The notes beneath the pieces are model-generated. The model was not told the DNA's origin, searched no databases, and saw only the letters and a program-made list of their open reading frames with translations. The position numbers and the translations under genes are program-made. Source: Bacteroidota bacterium (GTDB lineage: Bacteria; Bacteroidota; Bacteroidia; Chitinophagales; Saprospiraceae). From it: 32,000 nt of DNA. Positions 4,595 to 29,338 of this stretch are shown here, in pieces (the first letter of the stretch is position 1; every line of letters begins with the position of its first letter). Location: positions 4,089 to 36,088 of the forward strand of contig JBCBWU010000026.1 in NCBI GenBank assembly GCA_039816955.1. Reading direction: 5' to 3'.

Positions 4595-5875
4595 TTAAGC
4601 AACCACTACTTTCTCCAACAACTGCCGCCTGCCTGGTCCCGTAGAAACCATCGCCACTGGTACGTTCAGGCGTGCTTCAATTTCTTCTACGTACTGCTGT
4701 GCCGCTTCCGGTAGCATGCCGTAGGTAGCCACTCTTTCCAAGCCGGACTTCCAGCCGCCAAATGATTCGTAAACGGGCTTACAATCCTCATCGCAGAGGT
4801 CGTAAGGGAGCTGTTCAGTCTGCTGGCCATTATTTTCGTAGGCTGTAGCCATCTTGATTTCGCCCAGCTTGTTCAGGACATCAATCTTGGTGACAACTAG
4901 CTGTGTGACGCCGTTGAGCATGATGGTGTAGCGCAGTTGCGGTAGGTCAATCCAGCCACAGCGGCGTGGGCGTCCGGTAGTAGCACCAAATTCGGCCCCT
5001 TCTTTCTGAAGGAACTCACCCATCTCATCAAATAGCTCGGTAGGGAAGGGGCCAGAGCCAACCCGCGTACAGTAAGCCTTGGTGATACCAATGACCTCAC
5101 CAATTTTTTGTGGGCTTACGCCCAAACCGGTACAAACTCCAGCGGTGATGGTGTTGGAAGAGGTTACAAAGGGATAAGTACCGTAGTCAATATCGAGCAT
5201 AGAACCCTGAGCACCTTCGGCCAGGATCCGCTTACCGGTGCGTAAGGCCTCATTGATGAAGTATTCCCCATTTACCAGTTTTAGCTGCCGCAAGCGTTCG
5301 ATAGCGGCCATCCACTTCTCTTCTTCGCCCGCCAGGTCAAATTCTACTTCTGGATAGATCTTCAGCAATTCCAGGTGCTTTGCCTTAAGGGCATTGTAGC
5401 GGTCCTGAAAATCACTGGCTTCCAAATCGCCTACCCGCAGACCATTGCGGCCTGTTTTATCCATGTAGGTAGGGCCAATTCCTTTCAGGGTAGAACCAAT
5501 CTTAGCTTTACCCTTGGCGTTTTCACTGGCTTTATCCAGGTAGCGGTGGGTGGGCAGGATAAGGTGTGCTTTGCGCGCTACAAACAGCCGCTCTGCGTAG
5601 TCTACTCCAGCAGCATCCAGCTCGTTCAGTTCTCGTTCCAATGTGATTGGGTCGATAACTACGCCGTTGCCGATGAGGTTGAGTTGTGCTTCTCGGAATA
5701 TACCCGATGGAATGGTGTGGAGCACGTGTTTTTTATCTTCAAAAACGAGGGTGTGTCCAGCGTTTGGGCCACCTTGGAAGCGGGCAATGATATCGTAGCG
5801 AGGGGCCAGATAATCAACCACTTTTCCTTTTCCTTCGTCGCCCCATTGGAGGCCGAGTAGTACATCTACCGTCAT
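4595..5875 (-). CDS. purA: adenylosuccinate synthase
   Basis: 426 aa with the P-loop-like QWGDEGKGK, then GGPNAGHT and GTTGRPRRCGW. These are canonical PurA signatures. Confidence 0.95.
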   Translation of the reverse strand: MTVDVLLGLQWGDEGKGKVVDYLAPRYDIIARFQGGPNAGHTLVFEDKKHVLHTIPSGIFREAQLNLIGNGVVIDPITLERELNELDAAGVDYAERLFVARKAHLILPTHRYLDKASENAKGKAKIGSTLKGIGPTYMDKTGRNGLRVGDLEASDFQDRYNALKAKHLELLKIYPEVEFDLAGEEEKWMAAIERLRQLKLVNGEYFINEALRTGKRILAEGAQGSMLDIDYGTYPFVTSSNTITAGVCTGLGVSPQKIGEVIGITKAYCTRVGSGPFPTELFDEMGEFLQKEGAEFGATTGRPRRCGWIDLPQLRYTIMLNGVTQLVVTKIDVLNKLGEIKMATAYENNGQQTEQLPYDLCDEDCKPVYESFGGWKSGLERVATYGMLPEAAQQYVEEIEARLNVPVAMVSTGPGRRQLLEKVVVA

Positions 5876-5940: not shown

Positions 5941-6288
5941 TTACAATTCGTTGATCAGAGCAAGGGCTTCCTCCTCTGATTGGGTTATCGTAAATAACGG
6001 CCGGAGTTTAGTAACCTCCAGCAGTTGAATGATCTTATCTGAAATCTGCGACACAACGACCGCACCCGCTTGGTCTTGGCAGCGTGCCTGAAGGGAAATT
6101 AGAAAATTTAATCCGACACTATTGGTATAAGGCATCCCTCCTAAATTCACGACAAATTTAGTAAAACCCTGATCAATGCAATCTTGTGCAAGCTGAAGAA
6201 TTTCCCGGTTGGTGAATTCACTGAGCAGGCTATTCACCCGCAGGACTTTAATGTTGCCGACTTGGCTGATGGCGTAGGCTTGATCCAT
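5941..6288 (-). CDS. STAS domain protein (anti-sigma-factor antagonist-like)
   Basis: 115 aa with the SpoIIAA-like layout: KFVVNLGGMPYTNSVGLNFLISL contains the conserved Ser position, followed by LLEVTKLRPLF. Confidence 0.7.
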   Translation of the reverse strand: MDQAYAISQVGNIKVLRVNSLLSEFTNREILQLAQDCIDQGFTKFVVNLGGMPYTNSVGLNFLISLQARCQDQAGAVVVSQISDKIIQLLEVTKLRPLFTITQSEEEALALINEL

Positions 6289-25048: not shown

Positions 25049-25465
25049 TTAGAGTAACGAACTGATATAATTTAGGTATCCAGTTTTACCATTGTTCTTT
25101 CGCCAGAATTTGACGGACTTTAGAAGAATTTTTAGGCAAGTAGCATAGAACGATGGAAGAGAAGGAATAGGATTTCCGTTAGGTCGAATATCAGGATTGT
25201 TGATGAACGAGAGGTCCGCTTCTATTTCCTCTCGTTCATCAATGATGTTCAGAATTTCATCTATTAGCACCTGCCGGCGTTCAATTGTAGATAAGGGTTC
25301 TTCAGGAGCCTTTCCCTTGGCAACGAGCTGAAAATAGGTTGTGAGTCGGTCAAGTGCAAAAGCAACGTCATCGTCTTTTAATTGCGTAAATTCTTCCCTA
25401 ACTATTAGTACAACAGTTTCAATGGATTGCATGAAGGCTTGTTGATAAAAGGCAGGCTCTTTCAT
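25049..25465 (-). CDS. hypothetical protein
   Basis: 138-aa ORF starting 9 nt after the mnmE stop on the same strand. No family is recognised. It is acidic and probably helical, with no signal peptide. Confidence 0.45.
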   Translation of the reverse strand: MKEPAFYQQAFMQSIETVVLIVREEFTQLKDDDVAFALDRLTTYFQLVAKGKAPEEPLSTIERRQVLIDEILNIIDEREEIEADLSFINNPDIRPNGNPIPSLPSFYATCLKILLKSVKFWRKNNGKTGYLNYISSLL

Positions 25466-25474
25466 TAGTATTAG

Positions 25475-27337
25475 TTATTTTCCAATACAAAACTTCCCAA
25501 AAATATTTCCCAACAACTCATCCGTACTGATCTCCCCAGTGATCTCCCCGAGGTGATGCAAAGACCGCCGGATATCCATGGCGATAAAGTCAGAGGTAAT
25601 ACCACTATCCATTCCGGTGAGCACTGCATCCAGTGCTTCATAAGACTTCTCCAGCGCTTCGTAGTGGCGGGCATTACTCACAATGGTGCTATCTGTATTT
25701 ACTTTTTCGGAGACGACGGCCTCGTACAGTTTTTCTTTGAGGTAAGGCACATTCATGCCTTCTTTGGCGATGAGGGGAACCCAGGCATTCGGCTCAACCC
25801 CTAGCCCCTTCTCGCGAGAAGGGGTATCTGTGTGCTGCGGGAGTAGGGCTTGGCGTATCTGCTCAATCACACTCGCCAAATCATCGTAAATATCTTCGTT
25901 ACGGAACCGCAGCACTTGGTAACCCATCTCTTCTAATACCTCAGTCCTTTCTTCGTCCTTTAGTTTTACCTCAGGAAGCTGATGGTACCCGCCATCAATT
26001 TCTAGAATCAGTTTACGATCCAAACAGACAAAATCAGGAATAAAATGCCCAATCACATGCTGGCGCCGGAATTCACACCCCTCAATCTGCCGCTTTCTAA
26101 TATGTGGCCAAAGCTCCGCCTCCGCCTGCGTCGGATTATTTCGCAATTCCCTGGCCCTCTCTTTAAGTATGGAGTAGGTGTTTCGATCTGCAGTCAACCA
26201 CTTCCCAAGCGTAGTAGGAGCGCTTGCGCTACCTGCAATCTCCCCTCCTTGAGAGGAGGGGCCAGGGGAGGAGCGAAAATACTGCTCATACTTCGTATAC
26301 GGATTCAAATCCATCTTATTCGCCACTACCAACACGTGCATCCCTTCCTGCACTAGCTTGTTCAAATCTGCCCGTACTTCTTCCGGGGAGGTTTCAATGA
26401 CATCAAAGACGTACACCAGGAGGCTACTTTGCCGTACCTTCTCTAGCGTCTTCTCCACGCCGATGGCTTCAATGGTGTCTTCTGCTTCGCGAATACCGGC
26501 CGTATCGATGAGGCGGAACTGGATGCCTTCGATATTCAGGATTTCTTCAATGGTGTCGCGGGTGGTGCCGGCGATATCACTAACGATGGCACGTTCTTCG
26601 TTGAGCAGTGCGTTGAGGAGGGTGCTTTTGCCGGCATTGGGCCGACCAGCGATGACCGTACTTACTCCTTGCTTGATAACATTGCCGAGCTGAAAACTGT
26701 GAATCAACTGCCGGAGTACCCGTTGTATTTTTTCTACCAGCTGGCGTAAGTCGTCCCGGTTGGCAAATTCTACGTCTTCTTCACCAAAATCTAGTTCCAG
26801 TTCAATCAAGCTGGCAAAGTCGACTAGTTGCTGGCGGAGGGCAGCAATTTCATCACTGAAGCCACCGCGCATTTGTTGCATAGCCAAATCATGACTGCCG
26901 GCGGAGGAAGAGGCAATCAAATCCGCCACTGCTTCAGCCTGACTCAGGTCCATACGGCCGTTGAGGAAGGCGCGCATCGTAAATTCCCCGGCTTGGGCCA
27001 AACGTGCACCTTGGCGAATAAAGAGCCTGATGATCTCCTGGATGATATAATCGCTCCCGTGACAGCTTACCTCCACAACGTTTTCGCCGGTGTAGGATTT
27101 TGGACCTACAAAAAGGGTGACCAGTACCTCGTCTAGTATCTTGTCCTTCTCATCGCGGATGGTGCCGAAATGTACGGTGTGGGTGGCTTGCTGACTAAGG
27201 TCTTTGCCGCGGAATACACCGTTCACAATACTAATAGCCTTCGGGCCGGATAGGCGAATTACTCCAATTGCGCCCACTCCTTGCGGAGTAGCCAAGGCTA
27301 CAATCGTATCTGCTAAATTATGTGCGTTATAAGCCAT
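25475..27337 (-). CDS. mnmE: tRNA modification GTPase MnmE carrying an in-frame ~157-aa DUF559 endonuclease-domain insertion
   Basis: MnmE hallmarks are present. The N-terminal domain reads DTIVALATPQG.GAIGVIRLSG. The GTPase motifs are G1 GRPNAGKST, G2 region GTTRD, G3 DTAG and G4 NKMD. The C-terminal tetrapeptide motif is FCIGK. The length is 620 aa against about 454 aa for E. coli MnmE, and the excess lies between G4 and the G5-region LIAKEG. Confidence 0.9.
   Translation of the reverse strand: MAYNAHNLADTIVALATPQGVGAIGVIRLSGPKAISIVNGVFRGKDLSQQATHTVHFGTIRDEKDKILDEVLVTLFVGPKSYTGENVVEVSCHGSDYIIQEIIRLFIRQGARLAQAGEFTMRAFLNGRMDLSQAEAVADLIASSSAGSHDLAMQQMRGGFSDEIAALRQQLVDFASLIELELDFGEEDVEFANRDDLRQLVEKIQRVLRQLIHSFQLGNVIKQGVSTVIAGRPNAGKSTLLNALLNEERAIVSDIAGTTRDTIEEILNIEGIQFRLIDTAGIREAEDTIEAIGVEKTLEKVRQSSLLVYVFDVIETSPEEVRADLNKLVQEGMHVLVVANKMDLNPYTKYEQYFRSSPGPSSQGGEIAGSASAPTTLGKWLTADRNTYSILKERARELRNNPTQAEAELWPHIRKRQIEGCEFRRQHVIGHFIPDFVCLDRKLILEIDGGYHQLPEVKLKDEERTEVLEEMGYQVLRFRNEDIYDDLASVIEQIRQALLPQHTDTPSREKGLGVEPNAWVPLIAKEGMNVPYLKEKLYEAVVSEKVNTDSTIVSNARHYEALEKSYEALDAVLTGMDSGITSDFIAMDIRRSLHHLGEITGEISTDELLGNIFGKFCIGK
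25798..25824. repeat. terminal inverted repeat (promoter-distal end), containing a 10+10 palindrome
   Basis: The sequence is CCCCTAGCCCCTTCTCGCGAGAAGGGG. Its internal perfect palindrome ccccttctcg/cgagaagggg is at 25805-25824. It matches the reverse complement of 26242-26268 at 22 of 27 positions. Confidence 0.7.
26242..26268. repeat. terminal inverted repeat (promoter-proximal end), containing a 7-bp hairpin
   Basis: The sequence is CCCCTCCTTGAGAGGAGGGGCCAGGGG. Its internal hairpin is cccctcc (26242-26248) / ggagggg (26255-26261). It is the inverted partner of 25798-25824. Confidence 0.7.
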
Positions 27338-28104
27338 TATTCCTCAAATATGCGCTCTACCAGTGTGGGGTCCATTACAAAAGGGTTGGCCTTGCCATCT
27401 TGGTAGCGTCCTATCGACTGGCTGCGCTCTATTTCCCATTGATCGGGTGGGTCAAGAACGTGCCAATAGCGTAGTGTAAACAACTGATCGCTCAAAAAGC
27501 TTACTTCTACCTGATCATTGTACATCACGTATACGTAAAACATGGCGCGCGCCACGTCTCCTTTCTTGTCTTCCGGAGGCTCAAAGTAGCCTTGACCTAG
27601 TTCACTATAGCGATCGCGAACATCTGCTGTCGGAACGCGCCGCAGGTTTTGTTGACGGTAGTACCAGTGGGTAGCCTGCTCATCATCTACCTCGCCGAAG
27701 GGGTGATTACCACGCGCTTGGTTTACGCTGGCTAGTACAGCAAATAAATGATGCATGTCGCTTTTGGCATTTCCCTGTTTGGTGCCTTTGCTTTGTGGCC
27801 AAATGTGCTCACAGTTCATGCCGGTATCAGCGCCATCGTCAAAAATATACTTGGTAGGATCGTGCCGGTCTGATAAGTGATGGGCATAGCCAGTGTAAGG
27901 GCAGTAGATACTGTCTTGCTGGCGGTCGATGAGTGCATAAAGCGTATCGCGCGCCTGGCCATAGCTCAATACCGTTCTGGGGCGATAGGCTTCTTGTAGT
28001 GCTATCGCTAATTCGGTGCCACGGAGGTTCGAAAAAATTGTTCCGTCCTGTGCCACAACAGGTTTGGTTAACACGATAAGGAGGATACACCAAAGTGCTC
28101 GCAT
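27337..28104 (-). CDS. endonuclease I family extracellular/periplasmic nuclease
   Basis: It shows the CEHIWPQSKG and DMHHLFAVLASVNQARGNHPFG motifs typical of the Endonuclease_1 (EndA/Vvn-like) family. The signal peptide MRALWCILLIVLTKPVVAQ begins at 28104, while the ORF-track start at 28149 would overlap the MFS gene. Its stop overlaps the mnmE ATG (TAATG). Confidence 0.75.
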   Translation of the reverse strand: MRALWCILLIVLTKPVVAQDGTIFSNLRGTELAIALQEAYRPRTVLSYGQARDTLYALIDRQQDSIYCPYTGYAHHLSDRHDPTKYIFDDGADTGMNCEHIWPQSKGTKQGNAKSDMHHLFAVLASVNQARGNHPFGEVDDEQATHWYYRQQNLRRVPTADVRDRYSELGQGYFEPPEDKKGDVARAMFYVYVMYNDQVEVSFLSDQLFTLRYWHVLDPPDQWEIERSQSIGRYQDGKANPFVMDPTLVERIFEE

Positions 28105-28105
28105 C

Positions 28106-29338
28106 TTAGCTTTTTTCTTTTTGACGACCGAAAAATATAATGAATACAATCCAGCCCGCTAGAACCAATCCACTACCCACGATGATCGGCAGGCTACTAA
28201 AGAAAGTGATCAGATAACCGCCTACCAGTGAAGGGATCAATTGCCCTAAAGACTGCATGGATTGATTGATTCCTAATATCTCTCCCTGCTGATCTTCGTT
28301 CGCCTGCATGGAAATTGTAGCAGTTAGGTTAGGAGAGGTGATGCCTTGTGCAACGGCAATTAAAGGATTAAGCATATATAATCCCAAGGTGGTATCTGGT
28401 AGCAATACAAAAACAAGGGAAGCACTTAACGCCAGTATACTGTAAGTGAGAATACGCTGTGGCGGAAAACGTTTTCCCAAGAAGCGTACGAGTACACCTT
28501 GGGTAAGAGCTAACCAAATCCCTACCCAGCCAAAAAGAAAGCCGATGTCTTTTTCCGAATACGAAAAATCTTGGATCAGGTATACCGAATAAAACTGTGT
28601 AAAGAAGGTAAAACCAAGGGAGAGTAGTAAAACTACAATGAAGATCCGTCGCAAGTTAGGGGTGCCAAAAGAGATCGCCAGATTGCGAAAGCCCGTAAAT
28701 GGATTAACCGCCACTGTTCGTCGCTGCTTGAGCGTTTCAGGGAAGGCGTAAATAATAAACAGCACATTAAATGCTGTCAAAATCGCAGTAAACCAGAAGG
28801 GAGTGGAGGCGGTAAACCAGGATACAATGCTTTCGTCGGCTAAAACTCCGCCTAGAGTGGGGCCTAGAATAAAACCGATACCAAATGCCATTCCTACTAG
28901 CCCAAAATTGCGCGCCTTGTCTTTATCATTGCTCACATCTGCGATGCTAGATAGAATAACGGCGATATTCCCCCCCGTAAAACCAGGAATCATGCGGGAG
29001 ATAAATAACAATGGAATATTCTGCCAAAGGATGGCCACCGCTAGCAAAAGATAGCCGAGTAAAGTGCCGGCCTGGGTAACAAGTAGAACCGGTTTTCGAC
29101 CATAACGATCGGACAGACTTCCCAACATCGGGGCCCCAAAGAACTGCATTAGGGGAAACACCCCTAGTAATGCACCATACAGGAAGGAACGTTCCGACTC
29201 AGACATAGTGAGGGGAACAATACTGGTTTCGGGTTCAAAAAATAAAGCGGGGAGAACAGGAATGATAATTCCTACTCCAAGCATATCAATGAATACCGTC
29301 AGGAAAATGGTAAAGAGTGGCGAACGAGAGTTCTTCAT
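28106..29338 (-). CDS. MFS transporter (drug:H+ antiporter / TCR-Tet-like)
   Basis: 410 aa with about 12 hydrophobic segments. MFS motif A reads GSLSDRYGRKPVLL after TM2, and the N-terminus FLTVFIDMLGVGIIIPVLP is typical of Tet-like MFS proteins. Confidence 0.85.
   Translation of the reverse strand: MKNSRSPLFTIFLTVFIDMLGVGIIIPVLPALFFEPETSIVPLTMSESERSFLYGALLGVFPLMQFFGAPMLGSLSDRYGRKPVLLVTQAGTLLGYLLLAVAILWQNIPLLFISRMIPGFTGGNIAVILSSIADVSNDKDKARNFGLVGMAFGIGFILGPTLGGVLADESIVSWFTASTPFWFTAILTAFNVLFIIYAFPETLKQRRTVAVNPFTGFRNLAISFGTPNLRRIFIVVLLLSLGFTFFTQFYSVYLIQDFSYSEKDIGFLFGWVGIWLALTQGVLVRFLGKRFPPQRILTYSILALSASLVFVLLPDTTLGLYMLNPLIAVAQGITSPNLTATISMQANEDQQGEILGINQSMQSLGQLIPSLVGGYLITFFSSLPIIVGSGLVLAGWIVFIIFFGRQKEKS

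Follow-up and report, generated by a model that had tools for sequence, protein, structure and literature searches.

A DUF559 nuclease cassette with inverted-repeat ends inside MnmE of a Saprospiraceae bacterium: a probable mobile element of bacterial housekeeping genes

How does a complete DUF559 endonuclease domain come to lie, in frame, inside the GTPase domain of MnmE? The question is raised by the mnmE gene of a Bacteroidota bacterium of the family Saprospiraceae (GenBank assembly GCA_039816955.1, contig JBCBWU010000026.1), which we analyzed within a stretch of 32,000 nucleotides, referred to here as the window. An initial annotation, made from the letters of this DNA, had read a segment of the 620-residue MnmE as a DUF559/Vsr-like nuclease module with no counterpart in the host protein. 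We consider it probable that this segment is a selfish mobile-element cassette, in which a DUF559 nuclease gene without a start or stop codon of its own, bounded by hairpin-bearing terminal inverted repeats (TIRs) of ~33 nt, has inserted in frame into MnmE. Comparison with other genomes shows what this explanation builds on: the segment was inserted and has defined ends; close relatives have the same site empty, occupied, replaced, truncated or reduced to its repeats; the nuclease core is conserved under purifying selection; and the same architecture recurs in many unrelated housekeeping genes of Bacteroidota and Ignavibacteriota. Judging from the open reading frame (ORF) that runs through the segment, the cassette is probably translated as part of MnmE.

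Insertion and turnover at the MnmE site

The host protein is a recognizable MnmE on both sides of the segment. All landmarks stand at the positions given by the initial annotation (GRPNAGKST 231-239, DTAG 278-281, NKMD 340-343, LIAKEG 522-527 and the C-terminal FCIGK), and the G1, G3 and G4 motifs are kept, together with FCIGK, across the MnmE alignment. With TIGR00450, the NCBIfam equivalog model for MnmE, the score is 408.8 bits (cut-off 252.6), reached over two stretches with a break at residue ~351, and Pfam places TrmE_N at 11-128, MMR_HSR1 at 228-341 and MnmE_helical across 131-617. Both MnmE profiles are broken after residue ~350, with DUF559 occupying the gap. A Foldseek search with the full-length model retrieves the MnmE structures 1xzp, 3gei and 9hip at E about 1e-26 and recovers the three-domain MnmE fold.

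The insert sits in frame between the G4 motif (NKMD) and the G5 strand of the G domain, in a variable surface loop. As had been claimed, it contains no stop codon, and no Met occurs from residue 345 to the module interior. The initial annotation placed the insert at 25798-26268; its presence stands, with limits that are slightly larger once they are set by the TIRs (25792-26274), which had gone unnoticed together with their hairpins. The two 33-nt arms are imperfect (79% complementary) and each holds one C-run/G-run hairpin with an 8-bp stem. The pattern CCCCTYCTC-N4-GARGGGG occurs only twice in the 32-kb window, both times flanking the module, against a chance expectation of 0.03, and there is no second DUF559 copy in the window. 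Near-perfect repeats, GCTCCACCCCYGGCCCCTCCTC-N4-GAGGAGGGG, flank the same element in the ortholog from the isolate genome of Lewinella cohaerens DSM 23179, and near-perfect terminal repeats are also present in a further relative (L007) and at many other loci. The repeats contain no stop codons in the frame used and encode Pro/Gly/Ser-rich peptides. A segment shared by all orthologs across the phylum and lacking repeats would, according to the initial annotation, have spoken against an insertion; here, inverted repeats define its ends.

The arrangement is not peculiar to one assembly. The identical 620-aa protein is found on two contigs, and 25 further protein clusters from NCBI, JGI, ENA and Logan assemblies share it, as does the L. 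cohaerens isolate. That the window derives from a metagenome-assembled genome (MAG) would favor an artefact, either an assembly chimera or a mis-called ORF; with independent assemblies, an isolate genome and a continuous reading frame through an element whose length is a multiple of 3, we give this explanation almost no weight.

A comparison of the 120 best relatives of the host protein, all of them Saprospiria-like (Lewinellaceae, Saprospiraceae), revealed DUF559 at the MnmE site in 26 protein clusters and several other states of the same site. Relatives ~85% identical to the host have a clean empty site (P0028, 466 aa; Phaeodactylibacter xiamenensis, 462 aa), so the segment is not lineage-wide, as the initial annotation had expected of an insertion; P0041, P0096 and the locus L003 likewise lack the element. 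Only degenerate repeat ends are left at the site in P0026 (locus L005), while P0031 (locus L146) keeps an intact left repeat and 45 module residues, followed by a deletion.

The occupied alleles are themselves of more than one kind, a point that had previously escaped notice. In three pairs of relatives the host proteins are nearly the same and the modules are not: P0001 and P0008 share 98% of host residues and 54% of module residues, P0011 and P0019 share 96% and 55%, and P0005 and P0029 share 93% and 53%. Mutual identity among the type-B modules, those of P0008, P0019 and P0029, is 58-67%, and these modules reside in different host sublineages. At the DNA level, the window and the syntenic relative L001 are about 92% identical outside the element and about 58% identical inside it, with the drop falling at the element ends; host dS (synonymous divergence) is 0.58 in this comparison, whereas the module is saturated, with a pN (proportion of nonsynonymous differences) of 0.32. 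Furthermore, the locus L006 has a type-B element with its own repeats nested within the remains of type-A repeats, and L001 carries a fragment of a type-A left repeat beside its type-B element. The mismatch between host and module identity, taken with the nested element, indicates that the MnmE site undergoes turnover in which two or more module lineages have replaced each other, rather than holding an ancestral domain. The different site states, the identity mismatch, the drop in DNA identity at the element ends and the nested repeats together exclude both an ancestral lineage-wide domain and an assembly chimera.

The same loop also accommodates inserts of another kind. In MnmE of a Lewinellaceae MAG (GCA_020636095.1; L145:501-1988), a different palindromic insert lies in frame in the loop past NKMD; its GGAAGTC heptamers, arranged in tandem, precede their inverted complement, (GACTTCC)n, and the insert is read as GKSEVGSRK...TSDFQLPTSDFP. 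Similar repetitive loop inserts occur in the MnmE relatives P0038, P0049, P0054, P0089, P0114 and P0117. On this sequence evidence, the MnmE loop after NKMD is a hotspot shared by at least two families of putatively translated palindromic elements.

The nuclease module and its other host genes

The module is a full-length DUF559 domain, as had been predicted: PF04480 matches with 120.6 bits against a cut-off of 20.6, over profile positions 3-108 of 109. The D-F, E-x-D-G and His positions that the initial annotation regarded as conserved proved invariant, D57, E68, D70, G71 and H74 (module numbering) in 35/35 sequences, and the P-D-F Asp, E-x-D-G and His in 10/10 members of a mixed alignment of nine in-frame modules and one free-standing protein; these residues align with the catalytic residues of Vsr. 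The closest structure is 3HRL (N. gonorrhoeae NGO0050), which matches the module in sequence at E 1e-19 and in fold with a template modelling (TM) score of 0.86 and a root-mean-square deviation (rmsd) of 1.8-2.2 over 97 columns. The homing endonuclease I-Bth0305I (3R3P) follows at TM 0.76, with a sequence E of 0.02, and then Vsr (1VSR). In an AlphaFold2 model of the 620-aa protein, the per-residue confidence score pLDDT is 70-91 for the module and about 30 for the linkers 356-382 and 501-511, and the host strands are kept on either side of the insert. In this prediction the module forms a lobe of its own that is tethered by disordered Pro/Gly linkers and not packed on the G domain, in line with what the initial annotation had looked for in a structure prediction.

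Within the DUF559 core, pN is far below pS (its synonymous counterpart) in every pair compared, and L107 against L007 gives a dN/dS (nonsynonymous to synonymous rate ratio) of 0.07, a ratio that could not be computed for most pairs with their saturated synonymous sites. By these sequence comparisons the nuclease core is under purifying selection.

In a separate observation, the fold of the module, as modelled by AlphaFold2 and compared with the Protein Data Bank, also matches several proteins of the mitoribosomal large subunit in Toxoplasma gondii and Tetrahymena (9i05, 6z1p, 9g6k), and DUF559-like domains may have been co-opted as structural ribosomal proteins in these organisms. A defense-system identity was also considered for the module; PADLOC models gave only weak matches, one to DpdF that spans 50 residues (E 8.5e-5) and one to a 'homing endonuclease' model (E 0.0026), and it was rejected on these.

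MnmE is one of many host proteins with the same kind of element, which the initial annotation had not noted. An exhaustive search with the module returned 24,641 relatives; 57 of the 150 best representatives have a length of 300 aa or more, with the module internal in most and tandem or terminal in some. Pfam analysis of ten long relatives identified an aminoacyl-tRNA synthetase, CinA, RibD, SpoIID, SpoIIE, a glycosyltransferase and DNA methyltransferases among the hosts. A genome scan with one genome per GTDB species was used to retrieve the 80 best loci, those most similar to the insert, which belong to Bacteroidota or Ignavibacteriota with the exception of one 'Chloroflexia' MAG. In 62 of these 80 the module lies in frame within an ORF that extends more than 60 aa beyond it at either end, and it often splits the Pfam model of the host into two stretches. 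One host is the methionine synthase MetH, in which a major site (n = 27) separates the cap domain from the B12 domain and at least five further sites are used. Other hosts include IleRS, MetRS, ValRS, LeuRS, a B12-MeaB-mutase (methylmalonyl-CoA mutase) fusion, CinA, RibD, AcsA, adenine deaminase, Aldedh-MaoC, GH2 and SpoIID, and in GcpE the module is a C-terminal fusion. One Flavobacterium sp. MetH (L035:1277-4792) contains two modules that are 51% identical, each with its own repeats.

The ends of the element are alike everywhere: a terminal GCCCCC is followed by a 2-4-nt spacer and a C-run/loop/G-run hairpin, the opposite end shows this order inverted, and element lengths range from 420 to 650 bp across loci. 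A cross-locus control for repeat scores is inflated, as repeats of different loci resemble each other, and we therefore compared hairpin densities within each locus: the density of C-rich perfect hairpins is 2.86 per kb in flanks of 200 nt and 0.041 per kb elsewhere in the loci. The idea that the inverted repeats represent a duplicated palindromic target was rejected, as the loops of the end hairpins are reverse complements (GAA and TTC) and not direct copies. The free-standing copies among the best loci, mostly from Bacteroidales, are flanked by the same repeats and hairpins, and start at the same conserved Y-x-TAD motif as the N-terminal extension of the MnmE module. Repeats without a module also occur. 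Several of these host ORFs, for the mutase fusion, MetH, an aminoacyl-tRNA synthetase and AcsA, have solo repeat/hairpin footprints in frame at a second position, where they encode peptides such as SPKGGDLEGA (L018 ~5983-5999, aa 882; L028, aa 879; L025, aa 639; L065, aa 634; L075, aa 834; L083, aa 241), and L029 has a cargo-less pair of left and right repeats of about 150 bp (5041-5174).

Searches for possible sources were less productive. Word-index protein searches with the two insert types gave 123 and 67 candidates, mostly free-standing and about 50% identical, with no donor copy for the type-B module among them, and viral contigs yielded only distant relatives (<=40% identity) and no sign of phages carrying this subfamily.

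Proteins with several modules were also seen (P0206, P0209, P0218): one of 377 aa has three DUF559 domains in tandem, and proteins of the restriction-modification methylase type have two. Short free-standing DUF559 proteins (P0144, P0175, P0388 and P0402) carry source names such as 'guanylate kinase', 'adenine-specific DNA-methyltransferase', '5-methyltetrahydrofolate--homocysteine methyltransferase' and 'cyclase', names that were probably propagated from hosts with embedded modules.

The range of hosts bears on whether MnmE has domesticated the module, that is, recruited a nuclease fold for nucleic acid or tRNA binding or for GTPase regulation and kept it for the benefit of the host. Purifying selection on the core, persistence in 26 MnmE clusters and the apicomplexan and ciliate mitoribosomal proteins, which show that co-option of a similar fold is possible, are all compatible with recruitment. 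We nevertheless judge it very unlikely: the same module and repeat ends are found in more than 15 functionally unrelated enzymes and free between genes, MnmE relatives that are 85% identical differ in whether they carry it, two module lineages take each other's place at the site, and the model tethers the module by disordered linkers.

A further possibility is that the segment is removed before the mature protein is formed, by protein splicing or by pairing of the repeats in the mRNA followed by excision or ribosome bypass. In-frame placement in a conserved gene is intein-like, and in the minimum-free-energy RNA fold the two repeats pair as a long closing stem (z = -2.2). Pfam and NCBIfam matches of the 620-aa protein include no intein or Hint domain; the nuclease core leaves only about 50 residues of the insert, which is not enough for splicing blocks; and the junctions (YFR/SSPG and GVE/PNAW) have no Cys or Ser in first position, no terminal His-Asn and no Cys, Ser or Thr at +1. 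An intein identity was rejected for lack of both the Hint domain and the splice-junction residues. Moreover, the frame is kept strictly open through linkers and module in 62 loci, which is expected for translation and is not needed for RNA excision; nothing suggests excision at the RNA level despite the predicted pairing, though no search against Rfam and no test for an intron was made. Removal of the segment is thus highly improbable in our view.

Mobility and relation to known elements

If the segment is a mobile cassette, the relationships among modules should be informative on how it travels, and vertical and mobile signals are both present. Mean module identity is 66.8% at the same site in the same class, 59.0% at the same site in different classes, 55.6% at different sites in the same class and 53.4% when both differ. 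Such clustering by site fits long vertical residence as well as site-specific homing. Within Flavobacterium, however, two different MetH sites have modules that share 77% identity, and a Chitinophagaceae MAG has an AcsA module whose closest counterparts are MetRS modules of Chitinophagaceae; on the strength of these two cases, the sequences point to occasional jumps to new sites.

The vertical component raises the possibility of an inert relic, a single ancient insertion in an ancestor of the Saprospiria lineage concerned that has since been a passenger with no remaining mobility, changed by fast divergence in situ and occasional loss. It would account for the grouping of modules mostly by site and taxon, the saturated synonymous sites, the lack of identical copies and target-site duplications, and a module composition like that of the host (GC content 0.48-0.51). 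It is difficult to reconcile with hosts 98, 96 and 93% identical carrying modules only 54, 55 and 53% identical, with type-B modules that are closer across host sublineages, with a saturated module beside a host dS of 0.58 in the comparison of the window with L001, or with type-B elements nested in type-A repeats. In addition, an inert passenger would be expected to decay as P0026 and P0031 have done, rather than keep its nuclease residues under strong purifying selection. We therefore regard an inert relic as unlikely, while giving it more credence than either domestication or removal of the segment.

A plausible mechanism for the selfish cassette begins with its ends. The C/G-rich repeats would be read as flexible linkers rich in Pro, Gly and Ser, leaving the nuclease as an independent lobe and the GTPase functional. 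The element would persist as only a precise deletion restores the essential gene, which amounts to intein logic without protein splicing. Expressed through the host gene, the nuclease would cut empty or repeat-bearing sites, and repair-mediated copying would spread the element in a homing-like manner. A nuclease alone is unable to perform strand transfer, and for this reason we favor such a route over classical transposition. The inverted repeats may serve for recognition, form an RNA structure or act as a substrate of recombination.

Several observations weigh against a mobile cassette. Current mobility lacks a direct sign, and its mechanism is one we infer; no near-identical copies at different sites were seen among the loci compared, the nearest-neighbor module lies at the same site in 40/55 cases, and target-site duplications are absent at 21 well-defined element ends. 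DUF559 is the sole insert domain recognized by Pfam, with no transposase (DDE, HUH, serine or tyrosine) or recombinase encoded, and a nuclease-only cassette does not explain the role of the inverted repeats. A metagenome scan with the repeat GCTCCNCCCCNGGCCCCTCCTC gave 18 matches, only those in the window and the L006 contig being real and the others chance matches in GC-rich DNA; the exact repeat is thus lineage-specific. Synonymous saturation affects most module pairs, the full-length AlphaFold2 model is only moderate (mean pLDDT 68, predicted TM score 0.43), and the proportion of embedded copies, 62/80, describes the loci most similar to this insert and not DUF559 overall.

Among known systems, the selfish cassette resembles the homing endonucleases borne by inteins, which are likewise in-frame selfish inserts in conserved housekeeping proteins, expressed via the host gene, with presence/absence polymorphism and disagreement between element and host phylogenies. 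Unlike an intein, the MnmE element has terminal inverted repeats, lies in a variable loop and not in an active-site motif, and apparently stays in the mature protein on its flexible linkers. Measured against homing endonuclease genes in general, it shows presence/absence polymorphism at ~85% host identity and phylogenetic incongruence, but it is neither free-standing nor housed in a self-splicing intron or intein, being fused in frame. It shares its fold and superfamily with the Vsr-like/EDxHD homing endonucleases such as I-Bth0305I. Those are known as mobile and invade protein-coding genes, as free-standing ORFs in group I introns or between the halves of split inteins (Dassa et al. 2009, PMC2677866), and are described as free-standing in introns or 'fractured genes' (PMC2677866; bioRxiv 10.1101/2025.01.02.630785). 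They have their own start and stop codons, whereas the module described here is fused on both sides and is DUF559 proper, of the 3HRL type. DUF559 itself is listed as a Vsr-clan family of unknown function (PMC3424549), and fusions with SF1 helicases are known from the literature.

The repeat-bounded architecture invites comparison with a second group of elements. Rickettsia palindromic elements (RPEs) are also palindromic-ended in-frame inserts in host proteins; for the MnmE element, translation is deduced from the open frame. The repeat-only footprints, such as that of P0026 and the solo repeats in host ORFs, look like RPEs. Ogata and colleagues are said to have described RPEs in 2000 as encoding no enzyme and spanning about 100-150 bp. 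The MnmE element, from a different phylum, carries a complete nuclease under purifying selection, and the likening of it to RPEs in the initial annotation, but with an enzyme on board, was apt. MITEs and the REP-RAYT (REPIN) systems share short inverted-repeat or hairpin ends around a small nuclease gene and cargo-less, repeat-only derivatives; the present element differs from them in having no DDE or HUH transposase, no target-site duplication and a preferred habitat inside ORFs rather than between genes. Finally, free-standing DUF559 proteins of the E. coli YcjD type (PRK09767) and NGO0050 (3HRL) consist of the same domain end to end, but are intergenic, with start and stop codons of their own. 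No published description of in-frame DUF559 elements was found in the full-text literature searched, the coverage of which is incomplete, so that prior notice is possible.

Genomic setting and wider meaning

The coordinates of the element and its host gene are collected in Table 1.

Table 1. Features of mnmE and its inserted element, in window coordinates
Feature	Position	Strand	Remarks
mnmE host ORF, stop codon included	25475..27337	-	620 aa
Host G4 motif NKMD, aa 340-343	26309..26320	-	immediately upstream of the loop with the insertion
Inserted element, 483 bp = 161 codons, TIR outer end to outer end	25792..26274	-	limits from inverted repeats; absent from empty allele L003
5' terminal inverted repeat GCTCCTCCCCTGGCCCCTCCTCTCAAGGAGGGG (gene orientation)	26242..26274	-	encodes SSPGPSSQGGE, part of the N-side linker
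Hairpin in 5' repeat, CCCCTCCTC-TCAA-GGAGGGG	26242..26261	-	DNA fold: 8-bp stem, 4-nt loop, -9 kcal/mol
Remaining N-side linker, about aa 366-378, EIAGSASAPTTL	26204..26241	-	predicted disordered; pLDDT 27-34 for residues 356-382
Module N-terminal extension GKWLTADRNTYS..., start of first helix	26168..26203	-	Y/W-x-T-A-D...Y..LKE motif; model helix 385-400
DUF559 / Vsr-like PD-(D/E)xK nuclease core, aa 391-498	25844..26167	-	Pfam E 3.6e-35
C-side linker, about aa 499-504	25825..25843	-	predicted disordered; pLDDT about 32 for residues 501-511
Hairpin in 3' repeat, CCCCTTCTC-GCGA-GAAGGGG, perfect palindrome	25805..25824	-	DNA fold: -8 kcal/mol
3' terminal inverted repeat CCCCTTCTCGCGAGAAGGGGCTAGGGGTTGAGC (gene orientation)	25792..25824	-	encodes PSREKGLGVE
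Host strand WVPLIAK, aa 519-525	25763..25783	-	G5-region strand resuming past the insert; model strand 519-521

The surroundings of mnmE vary between relatives. Synteny with L001 ends immediately past the mnmE stop codon, with DNA identity collapsing below ~25460; in the window this place is taken by an ORF of 138 aa and unknown family (25049-25465), its counterpart in L001 (8042-9568) is a 508-aa ORF without a Pfam match, and an aminotransferase gene comes next in both. Upstream, a 270-aa ORF (27337-28149) shares one base, 27337, with the start of mnmE by ORF coordinates, and its ortholog in a relative matches Endonuclease_1 (PF04231). In several relatives an HTH_17 (excisionase-like) gene lies directly 3' of mnmE (regions L105:3115-3866, L106:3097-3456, L107:3183-3929 and L145:2250-2488), accompanied in two of them by a phage-integrase gene. 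These downstream genes suggest that, in this lineage, another mobile element integrates on the 3' side of mnmE.

Should the segment be the selfish cassette that we propose, it would represent a third way, beside introns and inteins, for nuclease-encoding selfish DNA to live in essential genes, one in which nothing is spliced. Such cassettes would be a source for unexplained in-frame Pro/Gly-rich and palindromic inserts in many bacterial proteins, and would provide an autonomous counterpart to the Rickettsia-type palindromic elements, for which, to our knowledge, the mobilizing enzyme has never been identified. They would also give a concrete biological role to DUF559, a very large family (the 24,641 relatives noted above) of unknown function. 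Each insertion marks a site that tolerates a 120-aa folded domain, in proteins such as MnmE, MetH and the aminoacyl-tRNA synthetases, and may be useful for protein engineering. Embedded modules already mislead annotation, as the free DUF559 proteins named 'guanylate kinase' or 'methionine synthase' in public records illustrate.

DUF559 cassettes form a large, apparently undescribed family inside the housekeeping genes of Bacteroidota. A bolder proposal, to which we would give a little less than an even chance, is that they are 'unspliced inteins', a distinct and unrecognized class of autonomous bacterial mobile element, nuclease-only, that lives translated in essential genes. The host gene would supply promoter, start and stop, the repeats would double as built-in Pro/Gly linkers, the nuclease, as an extra lobe on a host enzyme, would drive homing or transposition, and decay would leave RPE-like in-frame footprints. 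If this proposal is correct, such elements would have shaped MetH, aminoacyl-tRNA synthetases, MnmE and many other proteins across Bacteroidota and Ignavibacteriota.

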